DNA of 64,000 bases from an uncultured Planctomycetales bacterium (GTDB lineage Bacteria > Omnitrophota > Gorgyraeia > Zapsychrales > Fredricksoniimonadaceae), in assembly GCA_964572155.1 (NCBI GenBank), contig CAZNDZ010000001.1, forward strand, positions 271,300 through 335,299, in the 5' to 3' direction. Shown here piece after piece: positions 777 to 45,465 of the stretch. Position 1 is the first letter of the stretch. Every line of letters starts with the position of its first letter. The notes beneath the pieces were generated by a model. That model was not told the origin of the DNA. It made no database searches and was given only the letters and a program-made list of their open reading frames with translations. A program made the position numbers and the translations under genes.

Positions 777-2318
777 ATGGATAAGAATACAGCCCTAGCA
801 TTAGTTTTATCAGCATGCGTATTGTTTGGTTATGATGCTTTTTTCGGGGCACCAAAACGTGCCGAAATGCTAAAAAAGCAGCAAACTATTGCCACCAAAG
901 AAGTTACAACTAAAAGCATCGTCACTTCTCCAGAGGCGCCAAAAACTGTTACAACCCCACCTGCCTTTACATTCAAAGAAGAAAACAATGATATTAAAAC
1001 CACAAATACGGGTTTTTCATTAAGTAATGCGGGTGGATCGCTCCACAATATACGTGTTGGCGCTAAAGATTTATTGCCGTTGAACAAGGTTTTGACAGTT
1101 GCTGGTTATGAAAACGAGCAATTTGTGGTAAAGAGCCTAGATTCCAATAGAGCGGTATATTATTTCAAGAACGACAGAATGGAAATTAAAAAGACCGTTG
1201 AATTCAAAGATACGAACAACATTTTAGTCAGAATGGAAATTAATTCAAAGGAAGCGGCTAAAATTAACCTATTTGACATTGATTTTGTGAAACATGCCGC
1301 GGATGCTAAGGAAAATAGCTTATACGAATATTTCGTTTCCATGGATAATAAGGTTGTACGTAAGGGAAATGCCTTTAAATTTGAAGCCAAAGAGAATAAA
1401 ACCGTGGCAGGGCAGGTTCAATTTGCAGGTTTTAGAGATCATTTCAATATATTTGTCGTTCATCCTGAGTTCGGGACAAAAACATTTGAAATCAATAAGC
1501 TTACAGATAGTCAACTTAATGTAGCGGTAACTGCGGGAGGGGCACAAGCGTACGATTTTAGTATTTATGTGGGGCCCCAAGACACGCCACTAATGAAGAA
1601 ATATGGCAAAGGCTTCGAAAAGGCCGTTGCGTTTAGCCGTTTTTGGATTCTTAATACCATATCGTTTGCTATATACTACACAATCCCATTTTTACACAAG
1701 ATTTCTCATAGCTGGGGACTTAGTATTATTTTAATTAGTTTAATCATCTATGGTTTAAGCTATCCACTGACGGTAAAAAGCATGATGTCTATGCGTAAAA
1801 TGCAGCTTGTTCAACCAAAAATTAAAGCACTGCAAGATAGATATAAATCGGATCCAACCAAGCTCAATGCGGAAATTATGGATATTTACCGACGAGAAAA
1901 GATAAATCCTTTGGGAGGGTGTTTGCCGTTTTTATTACAGATGCCTTTATTTATTTCTCTGTACCAAGTGCTGTGGCGTTCACATTATTTTCAAGGACAA
2001 GGCTTTTTCTGGATTAAAGACCTGTCTTTGCCAGATCGTTTATTTATTTTACCTTTTTCGTTGCCATTTTTAGGTAATGAGTTTAATATATTGCCTATCT
2101 TGATGGGAGTAGTCATGTTCTTTCAGCAAAAGGTGACTGCAAAAAATTCAGTTGCAACTGATGAACAGCAAATTATGATGCAGAAAATGATGCTATACTT
2201 TTTTCCATTCTTTATTGGTGTTATTTTCTACAAGTTTGCAAGCGGACTATCGTTGTATTTTACCGTGTTCTACGCGCTCTCCGCATGGACACAAATACAA
2301 ATGAATAAAAAGAAATAG
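777..2318 (+). CDS. yidC: Membrane protein insertase YidC
   Basis: 513 aa with the conserved YidC core (…NPLGGCLPFLLQMPLFISLYQVL…) and a large periplasmic N-domain. Confidence 0.9.
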   Translation: MDKNTALALVLSACVLFGYDAFFGAPKRAEMLKKQQTIATKEVTTKSIVTSPEAPKTVTTPPAFTFKEENNDIKTTNTGFSLSNAGGSLHNIRVGAKDLLPLNKVLTVAGYENEQFVVKSLDSNRAVYYFKNDRMEIKKTVEFKDTNNILVRMEINSKEAAKINLFDIDFVKHAADAKENSLYEYFVSMDNKVVRKGNAFKFEAKENKTVAGQVQFAGFRDHFNIFVVHPEFGTKTFEINKLTDSQLNVAVTAGGAQAYDFSIYVGPQDTPLMKKYGKGFEKAVAFSRFWILNTISFAIYYTIPFLHKISHSWGLSIILISLIIYGLSYPLTVKSMMSMRKMQLVQPKIKALQDRYKSDPTKLNAEIMDIYRREKINPLGGCLPFLLQMPLFISLYQVLWRSHYFQGQGFFWIKDLSLPDRLFILPFSLPFLGNEFNILPILMGVVMFFQQKVTAKNSVATDEQQIMMQKMMLYFFPFFIGVIFYKFASGLSLYFTVFYALSAWTQIQMNKKK

Positions 2319-2319
2319 T

Positions 2320-2511
2320 ATGATTCTTGATACCCAAGCAAAAGAATTCGAAGGTGAATCTACCGAAGAAGCCATAGAGAACGCTGAGAAGGCCTTAGGC
2401 GTTTCACGTGAAACGCTAGATATTAAGATTGTCTGTGAAGAGCAGAAGGGCTTGTTTGGCATGGGTGGAGCAAAAAGAGCAAAGATTAAAGTAGCGATCA
2501 AGAAACCGTAG
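2320..2511 (+). CDS. Jag/KhpB N-terminal (Jag_N) domain protein. It is only 63 aa. The KH and R3H domains are absent.
   Basis: It occupies the position directly after yidC where jag normally sits. The sequence resembles Jag_N, and a stop codon follows at 2509-2511, 65 nt before parA. Confidence 0.55.
   Translation: MILDTQAKEFEGESTEEAIENAEKALGVSRETLDIKIVCEEQKGLFGMGGAKRAKIKVAIKKP
2400..2415. other. parS centromere-like site, copy 1: cGTTTCACGTGAAACg. It lies inside the jag-N coding sequence.
   Basis: 14 of 16 positions match the universal parS palindrome tGTTTCACGTGAAACa, including a perfect 14-bp core. Confidence 0.7.
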
Positions 2512-2540
2512 AGACGTGATTCATCGCGTCTAAGAACATC

Positions 2541-2556
2541 CGTTTCACGTGAAACC
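2541..2556. other. parS centromere-like site, copy 2: cGTTTCACGTGAAACc. It lies 21 bp upstream of the parA ATG.
   Basis: Same perfect 14-bp core. The flanking GCTAGATAT/CCTCGATAT is also conserved between the two copies. Confidence 0.7.
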
Positions 2557-2576
2557 CTCGATATAGCGAGAAAACA

Positions 2577-3347
2577 ATGTCCAAAGTGATTGCAGTTTGT
2601 AATCAAAAGGGCGGCACAGGCAAAACCACCACATCGGTTAATCTGCCTGCAGCCTTGGCCGAGCTTGGCGCTCGCGTGCTCTTGGTTGACATGGATCCTC
2701 AAGGCAATGCCACTTCAGGCGTTGGTATTAATAAAAACGACATTAAAAATTCCGTCTATGATGCTCTTGTACACAAGGCGCAAATGTCGGACATTATTTT
2801 AGAAACCAAGTTTAAAAACCTCTATATAGTACCCTGCAACATACACCTTACTGGCGCTGAAATTGAGCTGGTGGGGGCTTTATCGCGCGAAAACAGGCTA
2901 AAGAAAGCCATCGACAGCATCAAAGACAAATTCGACTATGTTTTTATTGATTCTCCGCCGTCATTAGGCCTGTTAACCCTTAATGCGCTGGTTGCCGCAG
3001 ATACCATTTTAATACCTATACAGTGCGAATTTTATGCGTTAGAAGGGGTCTCACAGCTCTTAAATACAATTGAGCTTATCAAGGAGGGTCTGAATCCAAA
3101 TTTGGCCATAGAAGGGGTTTTAATGACCATGGCGGACTTTAGAACCAATTTAACCAATGAAGTGATCAAAGAAATTAGCACGTATTTTAAAGAGAAGGTT
3201 TATAAGTCTATTATTCCCAGAAACATACGCTTGAGCGAAGCGCCAAGTTTTGGAAAACCCATTAATTATTATGATCCAAGTTCTGCAGGGGCAGTTAAAT
3301 ATAAAGAGTTGGCACAAGAGGTTATGGAGGCGCAGAATGGAAAATAG
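2577..3347 (+). CDS. parA: Chromosome partitioning ATPase ParA/Soj
   Basis: 256 aa with the deviant Walker A motif KGGTGKTT. Confidence 0.9.
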   Translation: MSKVIAVCNQKGGTGKTTTSVNLPAALAELGARVLLVDMDPQGNATSGVGINKNDIKNSVYDALVHKAQMSDIILETKFKNLYIVPCNIHLTGAEIELVGALSRENRLKKAIDSIKDKFDYVFIDSPPSLGLLTLNALVAADTILIPIQCEFYALEGVSQLLNTIELIKEGLNPNLAIEGVLMTMADFRTNLTNEVIKEISTYFKEKVYKSIIPRNIRLSEAPSFGKPINYYDPSSAGAVKYKELAQEVMEAQNGK

Positions 3348-4194
3348 AGCTTTGGGAAAAGGACTTTCAGCATTAATTTCAAAAAATAATTTCCAGTCTG
3401 GAAATTCTGAAGAAAAAAATGTAAGCAGCATTGATATAAAGCTAATTAAAAACAACAGCTTGCAGCCGCGGTTAGTTTATGACAAAGACAAATTGGATGA
3501 ATTAAAGGCTTCGATTAAAGAAAAAGGCGTCTTACAGCCCATTTTAGTCAGAGCTAGTGGTGACCAATATGAAGTTGTGGCAGGGGAACGCCGCTTACGT
3601 GCTTCCCGTGAGCTTGGATTAACCCAAGTGCCTGTTATTATCAAAAATGTGACCGATCGCGAAGCTTTGGTCATCGCCTTAGTTGAAAATATTCAGCGTG
3701 AAGAATTAAATGGCATTGAAGAGGCCAAAGCCTATAAGCGTTTGATTGAAGAGTTTGAATTTACTCAAGATACAGTGGCCCAATCATTGGGCAAAGATCG
3801 CAGCACCGTGAGCAATTTATTGCGTTTGCTTAAATTACCCAATGCCGTGCAAGATTATGTGTCGTCGGGAAAGCTATCGGTTGGGCATGCGCGTGCTTTA
3901 TTAACCATTGATAACAGCGACGAGCAAATCAAAATTTCCAAGGAAATTATCGCCAAAAGCTTGTCCGTTCGTCAGGTGGAGGCGGCAGTGCAAAAGCACA
4001 TGGCTTCTAAAACAGCCAAGCCAACCGCCAAGGTTAAGTCGAAGAATCGCGATATACAAATTTTAGAAGAAGAGTTAAGTCGTAGCTTAGGTACCAAGGT
4101 TATCGTTGAAGATAAGAACAACAAAGGCAAGGTTGTGATTGAGTATTATTCCTTAGAAGATTTTGATAGGATCCTGGAGGTCATACGTCGATGA
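3337..4194 (+). CDS. parB: Chromosome partitioning protein ParB/Spo0J
   Basis: ParB N-domain and HTH (GERRLRAS…). The start is chosen at the internal ATG 3337 (MENRALGKGLSALI). The track ORF starting at 3250 is over-extended into parA. Confidence 0.9.
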   Translation: MENRALGKGLSALISKNNFQSGNSEEKNVSSIDIKLIKNNSLQPRLVYDKDKLDELKASIKEKGVLQPILVRASGDQYEVVAGERRLRASRELGLTQVPVIIKNVTDREALVIALVENIQREELNGIEEAKAYKRLIEEFEFTQDTVAQSLGKDRSTVSNLLRLLKLPNAVQDYVSSGKLSVGHARALLTIDNSDEQIKISKEIIAKSLSVRQVEAAVQKHMASKTAKPTAKVKSKNRDIQILEEELSRSLGTKVIVEDKNNKGKVVIEYYSLEDFDRILEVIRR

Positions 4195-6382: not shown

Positions 6383-6899
6383 AAAAATTGTTTTAGGTGT
6401 ATGTGGCAGCATCGCGGCGTATAAAGCTGGCGATATCATTCGACGATTACAAGATGCGGGCGTCGAGGTTAAAGTGGTGATGACACAAGAAGCACAGCAA
6501 TTTATCACGCCATTAACATTGTCCGCGTTATCTGGCAGCAAAGCATTGACCGGCATGTTTGACGAAGATTCTTGGTCCATGGCGCATTTGCAATTGGTCA
6601 AAGGCACCGACGGATTATTAATTGCACCGGCAACGGCGCATGTGATTGGAAAATTAGCTCACGGTTTGGCCGACGATCTTTTAAGCACGTTGGCATTGGC
6701 ATATAAGAAAAGCATTTGGATTGCACCAGCCATGAACGATGACATGTATGCAAATACAATCGTTCAAGCAAATTGTGCAACATTAAAGCGTCATGGATTT
6801 AAGTTTATTGAACCCATCAACGGAAAATTAGCCTGCGGCGTCACTGGCATTGGCCATTTAGCAGATGTTGATGCGATTGTTAAAGCAGTCTTGAAATAA
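6366..6899 (+). CDS. coaC: Phosphopantothenoylcysteine decarboxylase (CoaC flavoprotein). It is standalone, with no CoaB half.
   Basis: MTKTPKKIVLGVCGSIAAYKA… matches the flavoprotein/CoaC family. The start is at ATG 6366, overlapping the rpoZ end by 17 nt. It is only ~177 aa, so the CoaB ligase domain is absent. Confidence 0.8.
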   Translation: MTKTPKKIVLGVCGSIAAYKAGDIIRRLQDAGVEVKVVMTQEAQQFITPLTLSALSGSKALTGMFDEDSWSMAHLQLVKGTDGLLIAPATAHVIGKLAHGLADDLLSTLALAYKKSIWIAPAMNDDMYANTIVQANCATLKRHGFKFIEPINGKLACGVTGIGHLADVDAIVKAVLK

Positions 6900-6905
6900 G
6901 TTTTC

Positions 6906-6989
6906 GGGCGGGTGGTGGAATTGGTATACACGCAGGACTTAAAATCCTGTGATCGCAAGGTCATGAGGGTTCAATTCCCTCCCCGCCCA
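6906..6989 (+). tRNA. tRNA-Leu (anticodon TAA), type II with a long variable arm
   Basis: Acceptor stem GGGCGGG/CCCGCCC and discriminator A. The anticodon loop is CU-UAA-AA. The T-arm is GAGGGTTCAATTCCCTC. CCA is not encoded. Confidence 0.85.
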
Positions 6990-7002
6990 TTTGCATAAAA
7001 AA

Positions 7003-7096
7003 GGGAATTGAAGTGAGCCCGTTTATAAACACGACGAATAGGAGTGTTTATGGGCGAGGGGATGACCGAGCGAAGCGAGGCACCAATTCCCTCCCC
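7003..7096 (+). repeat. tRNA-adjacent structured repeat element, copy A. It begins 14 bp after tRNA-Leu.
   Basis: 51 nt are identical to copy B (7011-7061). It is bounded by the inverted repeat GGGAATTG…CAATTCCC. It ends with CAATTCCCTCCCC, a copy of the tRNA-Leu 3' end. Confidence 0.6.
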
Positions 7097-7131
7097 ACGG
7101 CAAAGCAGCGACGTAAAAATATAAAAATTAC

Positions 7132-7206
7132 GGCGAGGTAGCCAAGTGGTAAGGCAGTGGTCTGCAAAACCGCTATTCACCGGTTCGATTCCGGTCCTCG
7201 CCTCCA
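7132..7206 (+). tRNA. tRNA-Cys (anticodon GCA)
   Basis: Acceptor stem GGCGAGG/CCTCGCC. The anticodon loop is CU-GCA-AA. The T-arm is ACCGGTTCGATTCCGGT. CCA is encoded. Confidence 0.85.
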
Positions 7207-7266
7207 GTCTTCGTCAAATTGCTTTCGCGTTTGACTACGACTGGCTTCGCCAGAAAAATTTTGGAA

Positions 7267-7344
7267 GGACTCTTAGCTCAGTTTGGTTAGAGCGCATCCT
7301 TGACATGGATGAGGTCACAGGTTCGATCCCTGTAGAGTCCACCA
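7267..7344 (+). tRNA. tRNA-Val (anticodon GAC)
   Basis: Acceptor stem GGACTCT/AGAGTCC. The anticodon loop is TT-GAC-AT. The T-arm is ACAGGTTCGATCCCTGT. CCA is encoded. Confidence 0.85.
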
Positions 7345-7373
7345 TATATAAGAATAAAAATTAAAAGTACCAA

Positions 7374-7476
7374 GGGATCGAAGTGAGCCCGTTTATAAAC
7401 ACGACGAATAGGAGTGTTTATGGGCGAGGGGCTGACTCCGACGAAGTCGGAGCACCGATCCCTGTAGAGTCCACCA
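7374..7476 (+). repeat. tRNA-adjacent structured repeat element, copy B. It begins 30 bp after tRNA-Val.
   Basis: It carries the 51-nt core identical to copy A (7381-7431). It is bounded by the inverted repeat GGGATCG…CGATCCC. It ends with GATCCCTGTAGAGTCCACCA, a 20-nt duplicate of the tRNA-Val 3' end. Confidence 0.6.
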
Positions 7477-7490
7477 TTTTACACAAAACC

Positions 7491-9221
7491 ATGGATTATT
7501 CCCGCGACATAGATAAGTTACGACACACGGCGTCTCACGTCATGGCTCAAGCTGTTAAAGAAATTTGGCCAGATGTGAAGGTGACGATTGGGCCTGCCAT
7601 TGAAAACGGGTTTTATTATGATTTCGATAAAAAAGAGCCTTTTACCGACGATGATTTGCGTAAGATCGAAAAGGGCATGTATCGCATCATTAATAAGAAC
7701 TTGCCCATGACGCAAAGCACGATCCGTCGCGAAGACGCCATTAAGAAATTTTCTGCCCAGAATGAAAATTATAAGGTTGAATTAATCGAAGGTCTTCCAG
7801 ATGCTGAAGTGTCATTGTTTCATACGGGCGATGAATTTGTCGACTTATGCAAAGGGCCACACGTTGCCTCAACGGGTTTGATCAAGGGTGTTAAGTTATT
7901 GTCCGTCGCTGGTGCATATTGGCGCGGCGATGAGAAGCGCCCCATGTTGCAACGCATTTACGGCACAGCATTCTTTACCCAAAAAGAACTCGATGAATAT
8001 TTAAAGATGCTCGAGGAAGCAGCCAAGCGTGATCACCGCAAGATTGCCACCCAACTCGATTTATTTCACATTTACCAAGAAACCGCCGGCGCTGGTTTAA
8101 TCTTTTATCACCCCAATGGTGCGATGTTGCGTAAGATCATTGAAGATTATGTTTGCGAACAACACTTGGCGCGAGGCTACCAACTGGTGCATACGCCAAA
8201 CATTTTAAAAGGCAAGTTGTGGGACATTTCTGGTCACTCGGGTCACTATAAAGAAAATATGTATTACTTTAAAGTTGACGACGAGGATTATGTGGTTAAG
8301 CCCATGAATTGCCCTGGACATATTTTAATTTATAAGTCCCATATTCGCTCGTATCGTGATTTACCTATTCGCTATTTTGAATTAGGCACTGTGTATCGCC
8401 AAGAAAAGGCAGGCGTTTTACATGGGTTGTTGCGCGTGCGTGGGTTTACCCAAGATGATGCGCATTTATTTATGCGTGCTGATCAGATCAAAAAAGAAGT
8501 CATGGATGTCATCGACTTTGTTTTTAAAATGATGACGGACTTTGGTTTTAGTGATTTGCACATCGAGCTCTCGACGCAACCCAAAGATTCTATGGGCAGT
8601 CAAGAAAATTGGGACCGCGCAACAGCAGCACTCAAAGACGCACTCGAAACACGCAATTTAAAATATAGCGTGGATGAAGGCGGCGGTGCTTTTTATGGAC
8701 CTAAGATCGATATTAAATTAAAAGACGCCATTGGGCGTTTGTGGCAATGCGGAACGATTCAGTGCGATTTGAATTTACCAGAACGTTTCGAATTGGAATA
8801 TACCGACGAGACAGGTGGTAAACAACGACCAATTATGTTGCACCGTGCGCTGTTGGGCAGCATGGAACGCTTCATGGGCACCTTGATCGAACATTACGCG
8901 GGCAATTTCCCATTGTGGCTTGCGCCTAATCAAATTGCGATTATTCCAATTAAGCCAGAGCACGAAGCTTTTGCTGAAAATTTGAAAAAACAATTACAAG
9001 ATGTCAAATTGCGCGTCATTTTAGATAGCCGCAATGAATCATTATCAAAACGCATCCGCGAAGCATCGGTCAAAAAAGTTCCGTATCAATTGGTGATAGG
9101 GGATAAAGAAGTTGCTACATCCCAAATATCGGTGCGATTGCAAAATGGCCAAGATTTAGGGGTCATGAGCGCTCAAGCCCTGATTGAGCGGTTACAAAAT
9201 CAGATTGTTGACAAAAAATAG
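7491..9221 (+). CDS. thrS: Threonyl-tRNA synthetase. It lacks the N-terminal TGS domain.
   Basis: Begins MDYSRDIDKLRHTASHVMAQAVKEIWPDVKV…, which corresponds to the second (editing) domain of ThrRS. Class II motifs and the anticodon-binding domain are present. The track ORF starting at 7383 runs through repeat B and is an artefact. Confidence 0.9.
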   Translation: MDYSRDIDKLRHTASHVMAQAVKEIWPDVKVTIGPAIENGFYYDFDKKEPFTDDDLRKIEKGMYRIINKNLPMTQSTIRREDAIKKFSAQNENYKVELIEGLPDAEVSLFHTGDEFVDLCKGPHVASTGLIKGVKLLSVAGAYWRGDEKRPMLQRIYGTAFFTQKELDEYLKMLEEAAKRDHRKIATQLDLFHIYQETAGAGLIFYHPNGAMLRKIIEDYVCEQHLARGYQLVHTPNILKGKLWDISGHSGHYKENMYYFKVDDEDYVVKPMNCPGHILIYKSHIRSYRDLPIRYFELGTVYRQEKAGVLHGLLRVRGFTQDDAHLFMRADQIKKEVMDVIDFVFKMMTDFGFSDLHIELSTQPKDSMGSQENWDRATAALKDALETRNLKYSVDEGGGAFYGPKIDIKLKDAIGRLWQCGTIQCDLNLPERFELEYTDETGGKQRPIMLHRALLGSMERFMGTLIEHYAGNFPLWLAPNQIAIIPIKPEHEAFAENLKKQLQDVKLRVILDSRNESLSKRIREASVKKVPYQLVIGDKEVATSQISVRLQNGQDLGVMSAQALIERLQNQIVDKK

Positions 9222-14127: not shown

Positions 14128-14296
14128 TATAATCATTTATCCCTGCTAAGCACGTTAGGATTTGCGCTGTATTGAACCACAAAACTAACTCTAGGGAATA
14201 GGTTCTTGTAGACGCGCCTTGGCGGTCTCACACTTGTTCCCACCTGTGAAAACAGGTTCTCTTACACCAAGTTCGACGGCGGTGCGGGGTTTTTTA
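14128..14296 (+). ncRNA. Candidate small RNA or structured 5' leader. An extended -10 promoter, a ~150-nt GC-richer transcript with a GNRA-capped hairpin, and a T-tract immediately before rarA.
   Basis: TGgTATAAT is at 14125-14133. The hairpin CCTGT-GAAA-ACAGG is at 14242-14255. GGGGTTTTTT is at 14286-14295. There is no ORF and the RNA class is not identified. Confidence 0.25.
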
Positions 14297-14312: not shown

Positions 14313-15623
14313 ATGAATCCAACACATCTATTTTCAAGCGATGAAATCCCCAAAGATGCGCCATTAAGTGCGCGCATGCGGCCACGGCATTTGGGGGAAT
14401 ATATTGGCCAGACGCATATGTTGGGTGAAGGAAAACTTTTGACGCGAGCGATTGCGGCAGATCGTTTAAGCTCTCTTATTTTGTATGGTCCTCCGGGCGT
14501 TGGTAAAACGACACTCGCTTTGTGTATTGCCAAAGAAACAAAATCCCATTTCGAAAAGATTAACGCGGTGGCCTCGAACGTTGAGGAAATGCGTAAGATT
14601 TTAGCTGGCGCACAACACCGACGAGCAACATCGGGTCGCAAGACATTGTTGTTTATTGACGAGATACATCGTTTCAATAAAGCCCAACAAGATGTTTTGA
14701 TGCCTGACATTGAAGAAGGCAGCATCATCTTAATTGGTGCCACAGTTTTTAATCCCTTTTTTGCGTTGGTAAGTCCCCTGATTTCACGGTCCCTCGTGTT
14801 TGAATTAAAACCACTATCTTGCGACGAGCTTTTGATCATGCTCAAGCGCGCCATTGAGGATAAAGAACGTGGCGTAGGTTTTTTAAATATTAAAGCAGAG
14901 GAAGATGCGCTGTTATTTTTAGCGCAGGCATGTGATGGTGATGGCAGGCGCGTGCTCAATGCGCTTGAGGTTGCTGTCATGACAACGCTCGCGGATAAGC
15001 ATAATGTTGTTTACATTAATTTGAATGTTGCTCAAGAGAGCATTCAAAAGAAGGCTGCGGTTTATGATGCGGATGGCGATGCGCATTATGATACGATTTC
15101 TGCGTTTATTAAATCCATGCGCGGTTCAGATCCAGATGCGGCGCTTTATTGGATGGCCAAAATGATTTATGCAGGTGAAGACCATCGTTTTATCGCGCGA
15201 CGCATTGTGATTTGCGCATCCGAAGATGTGGGCAATGCGGATCCAAACGCCTTGGTATTAGCCAATGCAGCGCTGCAAGCTGCAGAATTTGTGGGCATGC
15301 CTGAGGCGCGCATCATTTTAGCGCAAGCTGCCGTTTATGTGGCCTGTGCTCCTAAATCCAATGCGGTCTATTTAGGCATTGATGCGGCGATTGCGGATGT
15401 TAAAAACAAGCGGCTCGAGCAAGTGCCTGATCATTTAAAAGACGGCAGCTATCCTGGGGCCGCCAAACTCGGCAAGGCCCAAGGTTATAAATATGCCCAT
15501 GATTACCCAAATCATTATGTACAACAGGTTTACATGCCTCATCAAACAACCTACTATGCGCCAACCGATCTAGGTTATGAAGCGAAGATAAAAGAACGCA
15601 TGGACAAGTTACGTAAAAAATGA
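14313..15623 (+). CDS. rarA: Replication-associated recombination protein A (RarA/MgsA AAA+ ATPase)
   Basis: Walker A motif GPPGVGKTTLA, followed by the AAA+ and MgsA C-terminal region. Confidence 0.9.
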   Translation: MNPTHLFSSDEIPKDAPLSARMRPRHLGEYIGQTHMLGEGKLLTRAIAADRLSSLILYGPPGVGKTTLALCIAKETKSHFEKINAVASNVEEMRKILAGAQHRRATSGRKTLLFIDEIHRFNKAQQDVLMPDIEEGSIILIGATVFNPFFALVSPLISRSLVFELKPLSCDELLIMLKRAIEDKERGVGFLNIKAEEDALLFLAQACDGDGRRVLNALEVAVMTTLADKHNVVYINLNVAQESIQKKAAVYDADGDAHYDTISAFIKSMRGSDPDAALYWMAKMIYAGEDHRFIARRIVICASEDVGNADPNALVLANAALQAAEFVGMPEARIILAQAAVYVACAPKSNAVYLGIDAAIADVKNKRLEQVPDHLKDGSYPGAAKLGKAQGYKYAHDYPNHYVQQVYMPHQTTYYAPTDLGYEAKIKERMDKLRKK

Positions 15624-33213: not shown

Positions 33214-36200
33214 ATGGTTTCCAAAAGAAGCATCCTAAGCGCAGCAATTTTAATTTCATTCCTATTTACAACCATTATCCCTGCCAACCGCGTTTTTGCA
33301 CTTGAAAGCACCCTTTTAACATTACCAAAACCTGGGACCATGGTTGCTGTCAGTCAACCGCTGGTGCCTGTTATGCTTAAAGGCTTACAGATTAATCCCA
33401 AAAATCCGTTGATCGTTGATTTCTTAGTTTCAAAAGGCGATGAGGTTTTAGGCCAAGCGCAATATTACAAAGAAATTGAAACCTTAGCCCGATATTTCCT
33501 CGCCAGCATGGCCATTCCAGAAGATCAATTATGGGTTAACTTATCCCCATTTGAAAAAGACAAGATCATAACCGACCCTTTAAGTCAAACCGAGATGGGC
33601 CAAAATATGTTGGCGCAAGATTATTTGCTTAAGCAATTAACAGCGTCGATGATTTACCCTGAAAAATCATTGGGGAAAGAATTTTGGAGCCGTATTTATG
33701 AACAAGCCAAGAATAAAACAGGTAATGCGAATATTCCTGTTAATACCTTTAATAAGGTGTGGATCTTAGCCGACACAGCCAATGCCGTTGAAAAAGGCAA
33801 CACCGTCATGATCACCGATGCGCATTTGAAAGTCATGTTGGAAGAAGATTATTTAGCCGCTAAGAAGCATGATGTTGTCTCAAACAATGAAAATTCTAGA
33901 ATCATCAGAGAGCTCATCATTCCGGAACTAGAAAAAGAAGTAAATACAGGCAAAAATTTCGCCCCATTGCGCCAAATCTTCAATGCTTTTGTGTTGTCTG
34001 TTTGGTATAAGCAAAACCTAAAACAATCCATCCTCAATCAAGTTTACGCCGATAAAACCAAACTGGGCGGCATCGAAGCCAAAGACAGACAAGCCAAACA
34101 AAAGATCTATGAGCGTTATATCCAAGCTTATAAGAAGGGCGTATTCAATTACATTAGAGAAGACAAAACACAGGGTGTCTCACAGCCACGCAAATATTTC
34201 TCAGGCGGAGAAGTCATCTCAGCGCAACATGTGAAATTTACCCGTGATGCAGCGATGTTTGCCGAGGCATTAACAAAGCCGTTGGATAGGGCGCGAGTTG
34301 AATTTGATGCAGCCATGAGAAGCGATGATCGCGGCAATTTCTTGTCTGTGATCGATAATGCAAACACGGATAATTTGCCCGAAGCAGCGGTTGCTATTCT
34401 TGAACAGCGCGCCAAAGACATTACAACAAGCGTCATAACAAAAAATGTGATTGAAGAAACACAGTCATTAGGGATACCCGTTAACATTAGGGTTAAGGAA
34501 ATAGCAGACCAAGATAATGTTTATAATGCCGAAAACATCATACAAAATGGCTATATCATTGAATATTCAAATGACATTAATCGTGAAAAAGGTGAAGGCG
34601 ATGCGGTTATTTATGTAACCAGTAGCTTTAGAAAGAAAATCGCTGATAACAATGGGTTGTTTTATTTTTATGTAAGAAAGATTCTAAAGATATATGAAAC
34701 GTCGGGCAATGCTGGCAGACAAAAAGAAGTGGATTTTATAAAAGCAAAAATAGAAGATGAAAAGCAAAGATTGAATGGGAGGGCAAAGATTGAAAAATCT
34801 TTGGCTTTAAGGATTCCTCCTGAAAGTTTCCCATGGGTATTGTTAGAGCGCGAAGCCAATGCATTATTAATCAATCCAACGTTATCGAAAGAACAGCGGA
34901 GCCCAGAGTATTTCAAAGAACGCGTAAAACACATTTTCCCAAATAGAAAGTTTAAGAAGATTGTTGTTCCGGGAACAGTGGCGTTTGAAGCATCGCAAGA
35001 AGCGTATCGATTGATGAAGAACAATGCTAATTTAAAGCTTATCAATGCCATGGATGGTGTGGCAAATTATGCAGATACAATCCCATCCACGGTCAAAGGG
35101 ATGATGGATCGTTTGAAAGAAGGCAAGCCTATTACCTTTGCATTTGGTGCTTCGAAATATAATCCGTCCTCTATCGCACACATTTCTGTCACCTTAGACG
35201 GAACATTCGCTCAAACAGGTGCATCCAGTTACATTGTCAATGTAACGCTCGAAGATGTCCGCAAGCCCTCGGTAAAAAAGTCAGCAAAGTCTCGTCTTAA
35301 ATTAGCCAAGGCGGATATCGAAGGTATTTTTAAGAATTTATTTACCATCTTAGATGTGAGTGAGCCAATCAATGGGTATGATCTAGGAAAATATAATGGG
35401 GAAGAAGTCTTCTTTCTAATTATCAAAATGTTAATACCTTATGGTTTGCAGGGTCCGCAATATTATGTCGCTGGTGAAGACCATTACTTTATTTTTGCAC
35501 CGTTGGGCAATGATCCTCAAAGCAAGTTCATTCAGTGGGATTTGATGGAAAATGAAAATGTACGGCAGCATTATACGTTTTATGCCAGCGAGTTTAATGG
35601 GGATGATTGGAAAACGTATCAAGAATTAGTTCGTCGTCAGGTGGTGTTGAGTAAAAATTTAGGACCAAGCACGGAAGCTAGATCCTTCTATTCAGATGAG
35701 GATAGTGCGCTCGATCGTAACGTTAAAGAAGGTATTATTAATGGCATCATTCAGGCTAAGACAAAAGAAAGATTGCTAGATGTTATGAATGCCGCGTCGA
35801 CGTTGCCCCGTTTTGATACAGCGGGTAAGGCGGTGGCAATTAACTTAGAGCATGACATACAAAAGAGTAGCGTTAAGGCGGTTTTGGTTCTTCCTCATCG
35901 ACAAGGTGCGCGGGGGCACGATAGTTTAAGAGATCAATTGGTTGAGGAGAAGAAACTAATCGTTATGCCCATGGAAGGGATCAAGCATGCTGTTTCAGCA
36001 ACAACTAATAGAAAATTCTTAGAACAAATTTTAACAGGCGTCTTTGATTATAATTATGGTTACGGGTTGACTATGGAAACCATGGAAAATATGAACAAAG
36101 ATCCCGAAATATTTCGCATCCTTGTACGACAAAGCGGCGTTAAGTTGCCCTTAGCATTACCATTGTTAATGCCAGAGCCGAGCGAACTAAAGGATTCAGT

Positions 36201-36720
36201 TAAACAAAAAGATTTTGAATTAAAAAGAGAGTTGCTAAAGTTAGGCGCACATCATGAAGAGGGCACAACACCTGCAGGCGATGAGTCGTACATTAAAGTG
36301 TTTGATGCGATGGGCAAGGAAGCCGTTTTTGTTGAATATTACATTGTAAATGGTCTAGATGAGCATGAGGGCGGGAGATTAAAAGATAAGAATACTGTAG
36401 AATACACGAAGATCACCGTCAATAAAGAAAGCCCAAATGGCCAAAAGATTTTAAAGCTCATTGAGGATTATGTGAAGCATTTAAATGATGCTGCGATGGT
36501 TTCTAAAGATATTGTGAATACGACACGCAATGAAAATAATGTGGGCGGTATCGAGCTTAATCGGAAAGATTTGAATTTGAATGTTACAAAAGAAGGGCAG
36601 GGGTTGCAGTTTGAGATGGATCCTGTTTTGTTGGAAGAGTTGAAGTCAGATAATTTTGGTGGGTTTAGACCGACGGTGTTGAGCATCACACCATTGAGGG
36701 CAAGCCCTGCATTGAATTAA
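33214..36720 (+). CDS. Giant secreted protein A (1168 aa). It has a signal peptide, a conserved N-domain (shared with B), a variable core and a conserved ~50-aa C-terminal module.
   Basis: A long uninterrupted ORF with signal peptide MVSKRSILSAAILISFLFTTIIPANRVFA. Residues ~30-340 are ~60% identical to protein B. The last ~50 aa align with B's C-terminus. Confidence 0.8.
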   Translation: MVSKRSILSAAILISFLFTTIIPANRVFALESTLLTLPKPGTMVAVSQPLVPVMLKGLQINPKNPLIVDFLVSKGDEVLGQAQYYKEIETLARYFLASMAIPEDQLWVNLSPFEKDKIITDPLSQTEMGQNMLAQDYLLKQLTASMIYPEKSLGKEFWSRIYEQAKNKTGNANIPVNTFNKVWILADTANAVEKGNTVMITDAHLKVMLEEDYLAAKKHDVVSNNENSRIIRELIIPELEKEVNTGKNFAPLRQIFNAFVLSVWYKQNLKQSILNQVYADKTKLGGIEAKDRQAKQKIYERYIQAYKKGVFNYIREDKTQGVSQPRKYFSGGEVISAQHVKFTRDAAMFAEALTKPLDRARVEFDAAMRSDDRGNFLSVIDNANTDNLPEAAVAILEQRAKDITTSVITKNVIEETQSLGIPVNIRVKEIADQDNVYNAENIIQNGYIIEYSNDINREKGEGDAVIYVTSSFRKKIADNNGLFYFYVRKILKIYETSGNAGRQKEVDFIKAKIEDEKQRLNGRAKIEKSLALRIPPESFPWVLLEREANALLINPTLSKEQRSPEYFKERVKHIFPNRKFKKIVVPGTVAFEASQEAYRLMKNNANLKLINAMDGVANYADTIPSTVKGMMDRLKEGKPITFAFGASKYNPSSIAHISVTLDGTFAQTGASSYIVNVTLEDVRKPSVKKSAKSRLKLAKADIEGIFKNLFTILDVSEPINGYDLGKYNGEEVFFLIIKMLIPYGLQGPQYYVAGEDHYFIFAPLGNDPQSKFIQWDLMENENVRQHYTFYASEFNGDDWKTYQELVRRQVVLSKNLGPSTEARSFYSDEDSALDRNVKEGIINGIIQAKTKERLLDVMNAASTLPRFDTAGKAVAINLEHDIQKSSVKAVLVLPHRQGARGHDSLRDQLVEEKKLIVMPMEGIKHAVSATTNRKFLEQILTGVFDYNYGYGLTMETMENMNKDPEIFRILVRQSGVKLPLALPLLMPEPSELKDSVKQKDFELKRELLKLGAHHEEGTTPAGDESYIKVFDAMGKEAVFVEYYIVNGLDEHEGGRLKDKNTVEYTKITVNKESPNGQKILKLIEDYVKHLNDAAMVSKDIVNTTRNENNVGGIELNRKDLNLNVTKEGQGLQFEMDPVLLEELKSDNFGGFRPTVLSITPLRASPALN

Positions 36721-36791
36721 GAGGGCAACAACATTGATGTTGTTGCGTATCGATTAACATGGATGTTAAACGTAATTCCAAGGAGTTTTAC

Positions 36792-39700
36792 ATGAACGGA
36801 TGTCGCAAATACATTTCTTTAACGGTGTTGGTCGCTTTCTTTTGCTCGACGTTGACGCCCATTAAAAATGCCAATGCTGCGCCTTTGGTTGCGGGTTTAC
36901 CCACGCCTGGGGCCATGGTCAATTTAAGCGCAACATATACGCCGCTATTGATCAAAGGCTTGCGTGTTCATCCAGAAAATCCATTGGTGTTTGATTTTAT
37001 CGTCGACACAGGCAACTCGCCCATTAAGAGCGACTCTAAAGAATTGCGTGCGCAGTCCGAAAAGCTCATCAAATATTTTTTAGCGACATTAACCATCCCC
37101 GAGAAAGATTTGTGGGTCAACCTTTCTCCTTATGAAAAAGATCGCATCATCGAAGAACCATTAGGCCAAACCGAACTAGGCCGCGACATGTTGGCGCAAG
37201 ATTACTTGCTCAAACAATTAACTGCCTCCTTGGTTTATCCTGAAAAAGAATTAGGTAAGAAATTTTGGGACAAAGTTTATGCTCAAGCCCGCGAACGTTT
37301 TGGTGTTACCAATATTCCGGTCAACACGTTTAACAAAGTTTGGATTTTGCCTGATCAAGCCGACATTTTTGTCCGCAACAACACAGCCTTTGTTGTTAAT
37401 GGTCATTTGAAAGTTATGCTTGAGGAAGATTATTTGGCATCAAAGAAAAACAGCGTCGCTAGCAGCAGTGAGAATTCTCAAATTATTCGGGAGATTATTT
37501 TGCCTGAGATTGAAAAAGAAGTTAATCAAGGTCAAAATTTTGCCCCATTGCGTCAAATCTTTAATTCCATGATTTTAGCGACGTGGTACAAAAAAAGCCT
37601 CAAAGAAGCGCTGCTCAACCAAGTGTATGCAAATAAAGCCAAGATCAATGGCGTCGATGCAGATGATAAAGCGATTAAAGCCAAGATTTACGAACAATAT
37701 TTACAAGCCTATAAGAAGGGTGTTTTTAATTATATCAAAGAGACAAACACATCAAATGGTCAAGTTACCCCCAAGAAGTATTTCTCCGGCGGGGAAGTCT
37801 TTACTAATATCCCTGTAAGTGAAATTTCAAATCCTTCACCCGCAATGATTGCACCAGCAGGCAGTTTATTTTCTGTGAATGCAGCGATGAGTAGCAGCGC
37901 TACTGTTTATAGAGCGGCAAGATTAAATGGTCTTGAGAAAGCTCAAAAAGCTAAAGAAGATGAAATAAATACCACGGTTAATCGTTATTTTGAAGCTTTG
38001 CAATATGCAGAACCACTTCAACAAAGACAGGTAGCTGAATATCAGGGTTTGGCTAGATTTATTTTGGAGGACTTAGATGAGCATGTTGATTCAGCGACGA
38101 GAAAGAAGCTCATTGCAAGCGTCATGACAAACATTGTGGGTTGGGCAAAGCAAGATCTAGATGGGAAATTGGATCCAAATGCAAAAGCTGTTTTTTCTTT
38201 AACAGCGTTTCCAATCATTCATTGGGGACACATCGAGTTGATCTTAAGAACGCTCAATCAAAAACATTTGTCTGGCCTTTCACTAGATCTTAGTGCTCAA
38301 AGTGCGAATAATCCATTAATTGGGGCTTCGTATGAGGACAGGATGTATTTGTTAAAAATCATGTTGCAAAGGTTTAATGGAAGTTTCTCGAGAGACAAAT
38401 TGACAGCGATTAATGAAGATCAGCGTCCAGAAGAAACCGGCGAACGCAGGCTTTTGGAGAGCATCAAAACAGCCAATAAAGGACAAACGCTTTATTATCC
38501 TGTTGGAAAAGGCTATGAGAGTACTATAGAACAATTTGCTGCATGGGCGCGAAATTCAGAGAATGCTAAGATTCTCGAAGAAAGGGATTTAAAACTCGTT
38601 GTTCTCGTCAATAGATTAAGCGAAGCTCAAAAAGTTTCTGCTAAACAAATAGCAAACAGGGTTAGTGTGGAAGTTTTAGATGGTGTTGATTTAGGCATTA
38701 ATAACACCGCCATCAGAGCGGGGCTCGCAAGCACTCCTAATAAGCCAGCAATTAACGGCATATGGTTTATTCCAAAGTCATTGGTTTTGCATCTTGCACG
38801 CATATCTCCAAGCACTTTAGGAAATATCATGGGGATTCCCGACATTCTTAAAGACATTGATCAAAAAGGCATGAGTTCAAGCATTGCTGTCTTAAAAGAC
38901 TTTATTGATAATGTTTATTCTGCACAAGGAAATTACCTGATCACAGAAGAGATTGTAGAGTTGTTCATGCCCAATCTAGCAGATGATAAAAAACAGGTTT
39001 TGGCGGATAAAATGCAATCTCTGTTGGATAAAGCGATGACTCAAATTAATCCAAGAGAAGTTGCTGCCGGCATCAGGTTTTGGGAAGGGTTGGATAAGAC
39101 AACAGTTATTAAGGGTGATTATTGGGCTTTACAAGAAAAGGATGTGTCGGATTTAGACAGCATTTCAGCATCTGAAGGTAAAGAATTGGAAAGCATTGGC
39201 GCCAATACCTTGAGAAATGGCCAAATTGCGGTGATGGGGCTTTGGGCAGGCGCAAGCTCTAGAATGAATACACATGAAGCGCCAGCTGAGATTAAGAAGA
39301 TAGTTAAGGGAAAAGAATTAGGGTCAAAAGCAGTTGTTCCAATTGGACAATATAATGGCGATGTTATTACGTATGCCGATATTGCCGCGTTTAATTTAAA
39401 GCGATTATTTGATCAGATCGATGCAGCTGCTAAAAAGGCAGGCATTGTGTCTAATGTTACTAATAATGTCGTTGGTTTTATGACCAATGATGCGTATCAA
39501 TCAGAACATGATGCAATGTTTATAGCGCATCAAAATTATGGCATGAAGAATCCCATACATTCATTCAGACAGCGCTTAGGTCCTATTTTTCAAGCACGTC
39601 CAATTGATGTTGAGAAATATTTTGGAGAAGAAAATAAACAAACATTTAAAAATGAAGAAGAGCGAAGTGCTTGGAGACAGAAAAAAGAAAGAGCTTTGAA

Positions 39701-42181: not shown

Positions 42182-43417
42182 ATGAGCGAACAGGCGAAGA
42201 ATAAGAAATTAAATGTTTCATCTGCAGAAGAGTTGAAGATCCTGCGCACCATTGTGGACATTGCGTCCTCCGAGCTCGATCTTGTATTAACCCTTCAGTT
42301 GATTGTTAAAATTGTTACTGAAATTACCGCCGCTGATTCGGTTTTCATTTATCTCTTTGATGATAAGAAAGAAAACTTGGTGCTCATGGCATCCAAGACT
42401 AGCCATAAAAAAGAATTAGGGCAGTTGGAATTAAAGGTGGGCGAAGGTATTACCGGGTGGGTAGCTAAAGAGAACATGCCCGTTGCCATCAAGAGCCATG
42501 CCTATAAAGATCCTCGCTTTAAAGGGTTTGATGTGTTGCCAGAAGATCGCTACGAAGCCTTCCTTTCGGTGCCTATAGTATATAAGGGAAAAGCCATCGG
42601 GGTTGTTAACGTTCAACATAAACGCGAACAAGATTATTCCCAAACAACGGTTAACCTGCTTGAGATGATTGCCAAGCAAGTTGGCGGCGTCATTGATCAT
42701 GCGCGTCTTTTTGAAGAAACCAAGCAAAAAGCGCTGCAGTTTGATTCTTTGGTCAAGGTTAGCCAAAGCATCACCTCCGAACACTATTTAGACGAAATTT
42801 TAAATCTGATTGTGGTTGTGACCGCCGAGATGCTTAACTCTAAGATTTGCTCGATCATGTTGTTAGATGAAAAGGGCACAGAGTTATCGATTAAAGCAAC
42901 ACAATCATTAAGTGTGGACTATAAAAAGAAGCCAAATATTAGCGTAGAAAATTCTCTAACTGGTTCTGTTATAAAGACTAAAGAACCAGCTGTGGTTTAT
43001 GATGTGCAAAAAGAAGACAGGTATGCATATCGAGATCTAGCCTCCAAAGAAGGGTTAACCTCGATGGTGGCCGTTCCCATGATCCTCAAAGATAAAGCCA
43101 TTGGCGTTATCAATGTTTATACCAAGAAACACCATCGCTTCTCAAAAGAAGAGATCAATGTGTTGCAAATGGTTGCCAACCAAGCAGCGGTGGCGGTTGA
43201 AAATACCAAATTGATGGAAGAAGCCCTTAAAGCCAAGGAAGCCTTGGAAACACGCAAGTTAATCGAGCGCGCCAAGGGCATTATCATGAAAATGAACGGC
43301 CTCTCAGAAGACGCGGCCTATAAATTGATTCATAAAAAGAGCATGGATACCTGCCGATCAATGAAAGAAATCGCTGAGTCGATTATCTTAATGTCGGATT
43401 TGCAAAAGGGCATCTAG
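42182..43417 (+). CDS. GAF-GAF-ANTAR RNA-binding antitermination regulator
   Basis: Two GAF domains (…GEGITGWVAKENMPV…; …LTGSVIKTKEPAVVYDV…) and a C-terminal ANTAR helix bundle (…ALETRKLIERAKGIIMKMNGLSEDAAYKLIHKKSMD…). Confidence 0.8.
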   Translation: MSEQAKNKKLNVSSAEELKILRTIVDIASSELDLVLTLQLIVKIVTEITAADSVFIYLFDDKKENLVLMASKTSHKKELGQLELKVGEGITGWVAKENMPVAIKSHAYKDPRFKGFDVLPEDRYEAFLSVPIVYKGKAIGVVNVQHKREQDYSQTTVNLLEMIAKQVGGVIDHARLFEETKQKALQFDSLVKVSQSITSEHYLDEILNLIVVVTAEMLNSKICSIMLLDEKGTELSIKATQSLSVDYKKKPNISVENSLTGSVIKTKEPAVVYDVQKEDRYAYRDLASKEGLTSMVAVPMILKDKAIGVINVYTKKHHRFSKEEINVLQMVANQAAVAVENTKLMEEALKAKEALETRKLIERAKGIIMKMNGLSEDAAYKLIHKKSMDTCRSMKEIAESIILMSDLQKGI

Positions 43418-43437
43418 GGCTACCTTAAAAAATTTTA

Positions 43438-43465
43438 TTGACAAAATCGTTTTGTAGTATATACT
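43438..43465 (+). promoter_or_regulatory. Sigma70-type promoter for the amtB-1 leader: TTGACA, 16-bp spacer, TATACT.
   Basis: TTGACA is at 43438-43443 and TATACT at 43460-43465. Confidence 0.45.
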
Positions 43466-43598
43466 TACAACCGTAGTAAAAAATGAACGTTCGAAGCAAC
43501 GATGTTTCGGGCGATATTAAGGGCAACGTTTACGTCCTCTGACTGGCAAGATATATAAAGCCGCGGGGGATTTTTTGTTTTATACATATAGAAAACAT

Positions 43599-43662
43599 CA
43601 GTGACTGATGTGAAGGGCACAGAGGCTCAATCGTATTATTGAATACAGGTTGGGCTTTTTTT
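43599..43662 (+). promoter_or_regulatory. Leader RNA element: the CAGTGACT motif, a hexaloop hairpin GGGC-ACAGAG-GCTC, and an overlapping intrinsic terminator. This is a putative ANTAR target.
   Basis: The hexaloop hairpin is at 43615-43628. Its 3' arm GCTC is the start of the terminator 5' arm GCUCAAUC (43625-43632). That arm pairs with GGUUGGGC (43648-43655, 6 Watson-Crick pairs and 2 G-U). An inner GTATT/AATAC extension is present. The stem is followed by TTTTTTT at 43656-43662. Confidence 0.5.
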
Positions 43663-43686
43663 ATTGTCAAAATCAAGGAGGTACTT

Positions 43687-43809
43687 ATGGTATCTAAACA
43701 AGCAACTTTGGAACGATTCTTACATGCAATGGGTTTTTGTGTGGCTTTCGCGGTGATCGCGGTGGCGGCTGGCATGTTTTGGGCAGTTGAACATCATATT
43801 TTAGTGTAA
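43687..43809 (+). CDS. Small hydrophobic ORF (40 aa, one TM helix) immediately upstream of amtB-1
   Basis: ATG sits 5 nt after AAGGAGG (43675-43681). The product is MVSKQATLERFLHAMGFCVAFAVIAVAAGMFWAVEHHILV. It is below the 60-aa ORF-track cutoff. Confidence 0.4.
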   Translation: MVSKQATLERFLHAMGFCVAFAVIAVAAGMFWAVEHHILV

Positions 43810-43859
43810 ACAGATAACAAACGTATAAACAATAATAACAAAAACAAAGGAGTCAAGAA

Positions 43860-45095: not shown

Positions 45096-45123
45096 TCTAA
45101 CTTTTTTCACGAAAGGAAAGGCA

Positions 45124-45465
45124 ATGAAATTAATTATCGCAATCATCCAGCCTCATCGCCTCGACGATGTAAAGCGCGAGTTATATGCGGCGGATGTTAA
45201 TTTGATCACCGTATCAGAAGTGTTAGGCCACGGCCGTCAAGTTGGTGTTGACGAATTTTACCGCGGTGTTAAAGAAACAGGTAACTTGTTGCGTAAGATC
45301 CAAATTGAGATCGCGGTCAACGAAGATTTCGTTGAACCATCCATCAAGGCGATCATCAAGGGTGCACGCACAGGTAAAATCGGCGATGGTAAGATCTTCG
45401 TCTTAGATTTACCACGCACCATCCGTATTCGTACGGGCGAAGAAGGCACCAAGGCCATCGGCTAA
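45124..45465 (+). CDS. glnK: Nitrogen regulatory protein P-II (GlnK-like)
   Basis: 113 aa with the P-II fold and T-loop …GHGRQVGVDEFYRGVKE…. Position 51 is Glu rather than Tyr. Confidence 0.9.
   Translation: MKLIIAIIQPHRLDDVKRELYAADVNLITVSEVLGHGRQVGVDEFYRGVKETGNLLRKIQIEIAVNEDFVEPSIKAIIKGARTGKIGDGKIFVLDLPRTIRIRTGEEGTKAIG

Follow-up and report, generated by a model that had tools for sequence, protein, structure and literature searches.

Immediately 3′ of two transfer RNA (tRNA) genes in a 64,000-nucleotide (nt) stretch of an Omnitrophota genome (contig CAZNDZ010000001.1, positions 271,300 to 335,299; the whole stretch is herein referred to as the window) lie two copies of a folded element belonging to an uncatalogued family found in Omnitrophota and other uncultured bacteria. 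We hypothesize, with a probability of about 55%, that the copies are conserved right-hand ends of small, nonautonomous insertion elements that are specific to the tRNA T-loop and guided there by base pairing. Each copy involves three related segments: the T-arm of the intact tRNA gene (X_up), a complement of it (X′) that would serve as the guide and, past a structured core, a duplicate of the tRNA 3′ part (X_down). The evidence comes from compensatory changes across the family, from orthologous sites with and without the element and from signs of mobility in other genomes and metagenomes, whose compared loci are labeled here by L-numbers.

Two Copies behind Intact tRNA Genes

An earlier note on this DNA had placed two elements of ~90 nt with a shared 51-nt core behind tRNA-Leu and tRNA-Val (7003–7096 and 7374–7476), and both lie where it put them, behind tRNA genes that are intact. 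The 51-nt core occurs exactly twice in the window (7011–7061 and 7381–7431; 0 occurrences expected in shuffles), and the tract identical between the copies is really 52 nt long, since G7010/G7380 is also common. The copies, A and B, part ways after GAGGGG, and this mosaic of a 52-nt identical tract and different hairpins in helix P3 suggests gene conversion. Relative to shuffles, the folding z-scores of the two copies are −4.6 and −5.7 on the + strand and −2.3 and −3.9 on the − strand.

Copy A follows a tRNA-Leu(taa) gene without encoded CCA (6906–6989, + strand, as are all parts of both copies; ARAGORN; Rfam tRNA 63.2 bits), of which positions 56–73 (6972–6989) form X_up. An A/T-rich spacer that is not conserved between the copies (tttgcataaaaa, 6990–7001) leads into the guide arm (7002–7012), in which X′ (AGGGAATTG, 7002–7010) together with an invariant AA is the reverse complement of tRNA-Leu T54–T64 (6970–6980); X′ pairs with CAATTCCCT (7084–7092) to form helix P1, as seen in the inverted repeat and in the fold. 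The core (7011–7083; 84.4 bits with a covariance model) consists of J1/2 (AAGUGA), P2 (GCCC...GGGC, loop GACGAAUAGGA), J2/3 (GAGG) and P3, which ends in GGCAC. It is followed by X_down (CAATTCCCTCCCC, 7084–7096), a direct repeat of tRNA-Leu positions 56–68 (6972–6984) and the displaced native 3′ end, truncated at 13 nt.

Copy B follows a tRNA-Val(gac) gene with encoded CCA (7267–7344; ARAGORN; Rfam tRNA 68.4 bits), of which positions 56–76 plus T (7324–7345) form X_up. Its spacer (7346–7372) is also A/T-rich and is unrelated to that of copy A. The guide arm (7373–7382) consists of X′ (AGGGATCG, 7373–7380) plus AA, the reverse complement of tRNA-Val T54–T63 (7322–7331), and X′ pairs with CGATCCCT (7456–7463) to form P1, again as an inverted repeat and in folds. 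The core (7381–7455; 89.9 bits with the covariance model) comprises J1/2 (7381–7386), P2 (7387–7425), J2/3 (7426–7429) and P3 (7430–7455), whose base pairing extends to C7456. X_down (CGATCCCTGTAGAGTCCACCAT, 7456–7477) repeats tRNA-Val positions 56–76 plus T and, from flank homology with empty sites, is the native 3′ end, succeeded by the native flank and then by the thrS start codon (ATG 7491). The duplicates of the upstream tRNA described in the earlier note are thus present, at 13 nt in A and with CCA in B, but that of B is 22 nt long and not 20.

In both copies the 5′ arm plus AA is the exact reverse complement of the T-loop and T-stem of the upstream tRNA (TTCAATTCCCT/AGGGAATTGAA and TTCGATCCCT/AGGGATCGAA). 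The pairing of outer arms that differ between the copies yet stay complementary is therefore real, but what had been read as covariation between A and B reflects the match of both arms to the adjacent tRNA.

The open reading frame (ORF) at 7383 that seems to extend thrS had been attributed to copy B and is indeed its artefact: thrS begins at ATG 7491 and encodes 576 aa, the same as its homologues, which also assign the window to Omnitrophota. This start lies only 8–14 nt past the tRNA-Val CCA, with no recognizable Shine–Dalgarno sequence (L015 2994–3003; window 7478–7493). Probably thrS is cotranscribed with the tRNAs and the 5′ end of its mRNA is made by tRNA 3′ processing; in the window, the inserted element becomes the thrS leader.

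A Family with One Layout

A scan of reference genomes with a gapped core pattern and a scan of metagenomes, searches of the kind that the earlier note had proposed, led to about 17 further copies in Omnitrophota metagenome-assembled genomes (MAGs) and metagenomes, likewise at tRNA 3′ parts and with one shared layout. Of the four matches in reference genomes, one was due to chance and three were true copies, all from Omnitrophota MAGs (behind tRNA-Leu(cag), tRNA-Val(gac) and tRNA-Tyr); the metagenome scan added seven true loci (after tRNA-Leu(tag), tRNA-Ala(ggc) and tRNA-Leu(cag)), tandem arrays among them. Matches in L003 (Methylomirabilota) and L008 were chance pattern matches within coding sequence and were discarded. 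A covariance model from alignment A3 additionally recovers, at 70 bits, a diverged and unseeded copy in L034. The core is neither unique to the two loci of the window nor enclosed in a longer annotated element.

The shared layout reads, in order, intact tRNA, spacer or cargo, X′, G-AAGUGA, P2 with the invariant loop GACGAAWAGGA, GAGK, P3 ending in GGCRN, and X, with the junction between element and tRNA copy reading GGCRN|C-R-A. Spacers measure 9–60 nt and are unrelated between loci, reaching >10 kb where cargo is present; X′ is the reverse complement of tRNA positions 56 to 61–71, and the left boundary of X is C56 in every copy. Identity between X_up and X_down stops abruptly, at position 73 or 76–77 in most copies and at 62, 64 or 68 in truncated ones, as expected of att-type repeats and not of slow decay. 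No upstream tRNA is present for some copies (L009, L012/L018).

The match between arm and target is kept where the target differs: at the same locus, T-loop positions 59–60 read TC in the window, GT in L014 and AT in L013, and X′ reads GA, AC and AT, respectively. The X′ of L007 can pair with 16 nt of the tRNA, although only 9 nt remain in X_down. X′ plus AA pairs with T54-T55-C56 and onward, and therefore spans the 55|56 insertion point of the intact tRNA.

As the earlier note had supposed, the core is not a standard annotated feature. With Rfam at gathering and permissive E-values (cmscan, E ≤ 10 on window 6850–7550 and E ≤ 1 on tandem arrays, which present all circular permutations), only tRNAs, transfer-messenger RNA (tmRNA) and 6S score in the window and four other loci. 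Viral contigs scanned with two core patterns gave 0 matches, BLAST against phage and plasmid collections gave none, and we found no description of the element in the literature on Omnitrophota, tRNA, mobile elements, ribozymes and T-loop integration. A coding role, considered on account of AGGAG plus ATG in the core and short ORFs in the window, was dropped because the ATG is not kept in other copies, where it is CTG, TAG or AAG.

Covariation and a Helix across the Element–tRNA Junction

Fourteen copies were aligned (A3/A4), and RNAalifold and pair counting agree on a three-way junction of helices P1, P2 and P3. Paired cells amount to 96.7% (38–47% with partners slid) and 12 of the 22 pairs show compensatory changes, values that were reached by 0 of 500 shuffles. 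P1 is formed by X′ and positions 57–63 or beyond of the tRNA copy; P2 is a covarying stem that carries the invariant loop and is flanked by tandem G·A pairs. A palindrome (GTTTATAAAC) singled out in the earlier note is present, but it is merely part of the bulge and stem of P2 and is absent as a conserved feature in other copies.

The covariation backs all three helices, one of which pairs across the element|C56 junction. In the base of P3, the partners of a conserved strand (G-N-(N)-Y-G-(A)-C-C) are the five final nt of the element plus the tRNA copy's C56, with covariation at two pairs (85:152, GC/UA/CG; 87:151, CG/UA) and C56 paired to an invariant G. Since the P3 base pairs through to C56, the junction between element and tRNA lies inside one continuous helix, of which the left half (P3 base) is conserved and the right half (P1) is tRNA-specific.

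Empty and Occupied Sites

Orthologous sites are available for two tRNA-Val genes. The thrS-side tRNA-Val is empty in L015, L029 and L030, where tRNA-Val-CCA is followed by a short flank and then by the thrS start codon; L014/L028 carry a diverged copy at this site and L013 a remnant that ends after AAGTGAGC. The flank past CCA in the empty sites (TTTTTTCTAATTACA) is homologous to the flank past X_down-CCA in occupied sites (TTTCTAACACG, TTTTACACA) and not to the spacer past X_up; the occupied sites with such a flank are those of the window and L014, and the L017 flank is also homologous. The mgsA-side tRNA-Val is empty in L031/L032, with CCA encoded, and occupied in L004 and L034; neither of these has CCA in X_up, and their X_down carries CCA in the former and CAA in the latter. 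L004 and L034 are an orthologous site even with MgsA proteins only 67% identical.

From this comparison it follows that the native tRNA 3′ end is the downstream one, X_down together with CCA and flank, and from this in turn that the added DNA consists of one X, spacer, X′ and core. The orthologous sites thus show both the direction in which DNA was inserted and the native origin of X_down. In our model the added DNA would comprise tRNA positions 56–73/76 (X_up), a variable spacer or cargo, the X′ guide and a core of about 75–100 nt; the insertion register would be ambiguous within the direct repeat, and the left limit would always be tRNA 55|56. Since a replacement 3′ end comes with the insert, the tRNA gene is left intact, and the native 3′ end (X_down, CCA and flank) would be pushed downstream.

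The suggestion in the earlier note of an att scar accordingly holds in one respect: the repeats derived from the tRNA resemble in their behavior the direct repeats, attL and attR, of an insertion that targets tRNA genes, as the empty sites at both genes indicate (L015, L029 and L030; L031/L032). A relic of ~100 bp they are not, as the core is conserved and covarying in at least 17 copies from many genomes, is kept at the orthologous site of L004/L034, occurs in tandem arrays and adjoins cargo genes.

Three other accounts of the sites were discarded. The CCA is no proof of reverse transcription from a mature tRNA, as the empty-site orthologues at both genes encode it; an insertion into the interior of the 3′ flank, with X_down made anew, was rejected since the native flank directly follows X_down; and a simple target-site duplication of X plus flank was rejected since the spacer does not copy the flank past X_down.

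Two observations concern the history of the thrS-side gene. X differs at 5 positions between the tRNA-Val of the window and that of L014, and within each genome X_up equals X_down over 21–22 nt; either these are recent insertions that arose independently, or gene conversion or selection holds the displaced copy identical. In L017 (2839–2965), the thrS-proximal tRNA-Val is a decayed pseudo-copy with a mutated 5′ half, an intact 3′ end plus CCA and, in place of the anticodon arm, a 10-bp hairpin whose loop is 17 nt long; upstream of it lies a new intact tRNA-Val, which lacks CCA, and no core module is present, so that this is another route of replacing the same tRNA gene.

Gain, Amplification and Cargo

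The family has been gained and lost at given tRNA genes, amplified and joined to cargo. Presence at the same tRNA is patchy among close relatives, and two different tRNAs (Leu and Val) of one MAG (L001/L004) carry cores that are 96% identical beside unrelated spacers. Tandem arrays of [X-spacer-X′-core] occur in L001, L005 and L011, and truncated copies in L013 and L010. A NUDIX gene takes the place of the second unit's spacer in L010; in L018, a copy closes a region with IS21 and Bro-N genes, with no tRNA within 10.9 kb upstream and an MNT-HEPN pair between two X repeats. Neither the NUDIX unit nor the MNT-HEPN unit carries an integrase. The arrays, truncated copies and cargo units fit a mobile element.

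Some array and cargo loci have further peculiarities. In L010 (− strand, 3340–2340), a two-module variant of the element occurs twice, flanking the NUDIX hydrolase gene; it is ordered as core, a 7-nt X (CGACTCC), linker, a second P3-like hairpin and GGCGC|X, and the composite is itself a repeat unit. The last array units of L001 (7034–7129, − strand) and L005 (1033–1134, − strand) end at nearly the same place, a few nt past the conserved P2 loop, which could be a preferred breakpoint or an alternative unit boundary.

The idea of a cassette array, with many copies among the small genes of L018 or beside Bro-N homologues, was rejected, as the covariance model finds one copy in the 20 kb of L018 and none in L019–L027. 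By the same search the Bro-N/DinD-like protein (~275 aa; L012 2169–3149 / L018 10001–10822) is not generally linked to the tRNA module. It recurs at 80–89% identity in thousands of records whose source names include Nitrospirae, Deltaproteobacteria, Nitrospinae, Sedimentisphaerales and a Euryarchaeota MAG, which implies very wide and recent horizontal spread.

A Proposed Base-Pair-Guided Insertion Element

From the anatomy and the sites we infer a mechanism in which the module would act as a single strand, in the tRNA sense and most likely as RNA. X′ plus AA would select the tRNA T-loop by base pairing, and the P3 strand and scaffold would align the 3′ end of the element against C56 for strand transfer. 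The catalyst might be a trans-encoded enzyme (a recombinase or HUH enzyme acting on the folded strand, cf. integron attC and the CTXphi attP(+) hairpin) or the RNA itself. A bolder form of this mechanism, which we put forward tentatively and hold to be rather less probable than the insertion element as such, is a programmable guide system: an RNA scaffold of ~80 nt whose exchangeable X′ plus AA could read any tRNA at 54–63, splint its own 3′ end onto C56 and then either catalyze strand transfer or direct an enzyme.

Several points weigh against a guided insertion element. No recombinase, transposase or reverse transcriptase lies beside any mini copy or in window 777–51574 (Pfam scan), and mobility in trans is therefore assumed. 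Because the searches were anchored on core motifs, the sequence conservation of those blocks is partly by construction. The excess of G·U over A·C pairs is slight (5 vs 2, with two further G·U pairs in the P2 stem of L005), so that the tRNA-sense strand and an RNA nature are weakly favored. Retargeting to a new tRNA poses a difficulty, given that X_up, spacer and X′ all differ between copies whose cores are 96% identical; arms may be renewed through tRNA-specific lineages with cores homogenized by gene conversion, or by a templated step that rebuilds them. Finally, the orthologous copies of L004 and L034 suggest long vertical persistence with structure kept, which a host-useful RNA would also fit.

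Alternative Explanations

The alternative that survives best, albeit as an unlikely one, is an element that works at the RNA level, in which the segment from X_up through the core is a T-loop insertion and the core a small ribozyme that cleaves and ligates at U55|C56 and core|C56, with X′ plus AA and the P3 strand as guides; it would spread by the reverse reaction into tRNAs followed by copying to DNA, or the RNA would just be removed or circularized. The location of the junction within a splint-like helix and a guide that spans 55|56 would suit such a ribozyme, as would the many invariant unpaired nucleotides and tandem G·A pairs, features typical of RNAs that are catalytic or have a tertiary fold. 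When tRNA-Val and copy B are folded together, the minimum-energy structure points the same way: the tRNA 5′ acceptor strand pairs with X_down, X_up pairs with X′ plus AA, and the segment from X_up through the core is looped out in a predicted intron-like conformer. Against this, no known ribozyme family matches in any circular permutation presented by the tandem arrays, group I or II chemistry needs more than ~80 nt, copies with a truncated X_down cannot be spliced, and the native CCA of X_down at empty sites leaves no signature of reverse transcription from a mature tRNA.

A second alternative is a host-useful cis-acting RNA in which a ligand- or protein-binding core would switch X′ between the T-arm, blocking maturation, and X_down as a decoy, and thereby regulate the expression or processing of the tRNA or thrS. 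The mutually exclusive pairing among X_up, X′ and X_down, the position within tRNA operons and in the thrS leader, and a structure kept at an orthologous site over deep divergence all speak for it. We nevertheless consider it improbable: close relatives differ in whether the same tRNA bears the element; arrays, truncated copies, cargo genes between X and X′ and the lack of an upstream tRNA in L009 and L012/L018 are not what it would lead one to find; and it gives no reason for X_down to reach through the acceptor strand and CCA.

We judge an ordinary integrase scar to be about as improbable, in which the repeats would be the attL/attR of degraded islands inserted by tRNA-specific tyrosine integrases and the core an attP arm, that is, double-stranded protein-binding DNA. 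The copies do have the direct repeat, running from T-loop to tRNA 3′ end, by which P4-type att sites are classically recognized, and larger versions do contain mobile-element genes (L018). The compensatory changes in three helices point instead to single-strand folding, near-identical cores at different tRNAs of one genome are incompatible with a protein-read att site, a target-complementary arm is not a feature of known attP sites, and mini copies keep the exact full module with almost no cargo.

The earlier note's other proposal, a small RNA that mimics a tRNA 3′ end (taken here as free-standing and as a decoy or substrate for a tRNA-binding enzyme or toxin), is the least credible of all, as the terminator-like hairpins bracketing L009 and L012 and the ...GCCA end of L012 are outweighed by a tail that is dispensable (several copies, including copy A, L007 and L010, keep only 7–13 nt of the tRNA copy), by a CCA that is inherited native DNA and has decayed to CAA in L034, and by the lack of any tRNA-like Rfam match.

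Implications

If the T-loop is indeed chosen by base pairing, the insertion element proposed here would be a new kind of guide-directed element, tiny, without a protein gene and, thanks to the spare tRNA 3′ end that it carries, of no harm to its essential target; should the programmable form hold, a new class of RNA-guided or ribozyme-driven mobile element would be hiding in tRNA genes by means of that spare end. On the most conservative reading, the copies still represent an uncatalogued, strongly covarying structured nucleic-acid family that is widespread in Omnitrophota and related uncultured bacteria. For annotation, the element creates false ORF extensions (of thrS here) and pseudo-tRNA fragments, and its tandem arrays may break metagenome contigs (the L005 array reaches a contig end). 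It also offers a tractable test case, as a 110-nt unit plus a tRNA gene should suffice to ask whether small RNAs can direct or catalyze the strand transfer of DNA or RNA.

Other Features of the Window

The start of the window holds yidC, parA and parB (777–4194), with the tRNA cluster and its elements about 3 kb further on, which suggests a location close to the chromosomal replication origin. A 6S RNA (SsrS) gene (14137–14294, + strand; 49.1 bits, just above the Rfam gathering score) lies directly upstream of a gene for an MgsA/RarA-type ATPase (14313–15623). Two adjacent large ORFs on the + strand (33214–36720 and 36759–42140; 1168 and 1793 aa) have essentially no Pfam match, a weak UDPGP stretch being the sole match of the second. 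At 42182–46914, a gene for a GAF-ANTAR regulator precedes two genes for the ammonium transporter amtB, which enclose a P-II gene, and a type III glutamine synthetase gene comes last; this is possibly an ANTAR-controlled nitrogen operon.

Comparison with Known Systems

The element differs from the known small catalytic and tRNA-like RNAs. None of the self-cleaving ribozymes (hammerhead, twister, twister-sister, pistol, hatchet, hairpin and HDV-like) gives a covariance-model match on the window or arrays, and a hammerhead-like reading of GUGA...GAG was rejected along with HDV-like, K-turn and box C/D readings, whose sequence requirements are unmet and whose models do not match. In searches for tRNA-like RNAs (tmRNA, YrlA, viral tRNA-like structures, mascRNA), only genuine tRNAs score, the permuted-tmRNA and mascRNA matches being sub-threshold and on real tRNAs. 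Unlike a retro-copied tRNA fragment of the Mauriceville type, whose CCA comes from a mature tRNA, the native empty-site genes already encode CCA.

A guide that pairs with both sides of the insertion point, inside a tRNA, is shared with group I and II introns (internal guide sequence, P1/P10; exon- and intron-binding sites, EBS/IBS) and with archaeal T-loop tRNA introns, and, as in the latter, the whole-transcript fold is predicted to allow the insert to loop out of the T-loop. The size is nevertheless about 80 nt (75–100 nt for the core) and not 200–600 or more, Rfam detects no intron domains, the insert carries a duplicate 3′ exon so that splicing is not needed, and the hosts are bacteria without the bulge-helix-bulge (BHB) endonuclease.

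In the ends of IS200/IS605 elements and the bridge or seek RNAs of IS110/IS1111, too, a short base-pairing guide, reprogrammable in principle, stands beside conserved end hairpins and chooses the target. Those systems have no long target duplication and no target copy, and they encode TnpA/TnpB or a DEDD recombinase beside the RNA. Relative to IS200/IS605 (including PATE, TnpB reRNA and IscB omegaRNA), there is no tnpA, tnpB or iscB in the window and no HEARO or IS605-orfB Rfam match, and the direct repeat is 7–22 nt long; relative to the IS110/IS1111 bridge RNA, with its adjacent DEDD gene, two guide loops and 2-nt core repeat, there is no adjacent ORF, the guide is the closing stem and the direct repeat is long.

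With integron attC sites and gene cassettes, and with the CTXphi attP(+) hairpin, the element has in common one folded site at the unit end, imperfect arms that differ yet are complementary, and arrays; in addition, the crossover point lies inside the helix of a folded strand, the arrays are preceded by a fixed primary site and there are "empty" units. Unlike attC, it lacks the R″/R′ boxes (RYYYAAC/GTTRRRY), the G|TT crossover and intI, its variable arm copies the target tRNA, and it folds into a three-way junction with long invariant loops; unlike cassettes, only one copy was found by the covariance model in the gene-cassette-like 20 kb of L018.

The closest resemblance is to tRNA-targeting islands (P4-type tyrosine integrases of the T-loop sublocation class, and the integrase-less CIMEs), which likewise insert in the tRNA 3′ part and carry a replacement 3′ end. 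The tRNA is reconstituted here as well, the direct repeat of 18–22 nt runs from the T-loop to the discriminator or CCA, units accrete in tandem at the same tRNA and larger versions carry cargo genes. Unlike those islands, the element has no integrase in cis, either in mini units of 110–130 nt or, by the Pfam scan, in the window at 777–51574. Units can be as short as about 110 nt, and the only conserved part is a covarying three-way junction of about 85–110 nt with a target-complementary arm. Whereas an island family has one protein-read att specificity, the same module here serves many tRNAs (Leu and Val both in the window and in one MAG). Such a structured, target-complementary end module is unprecedented among tRNA-targeting integrative elements.

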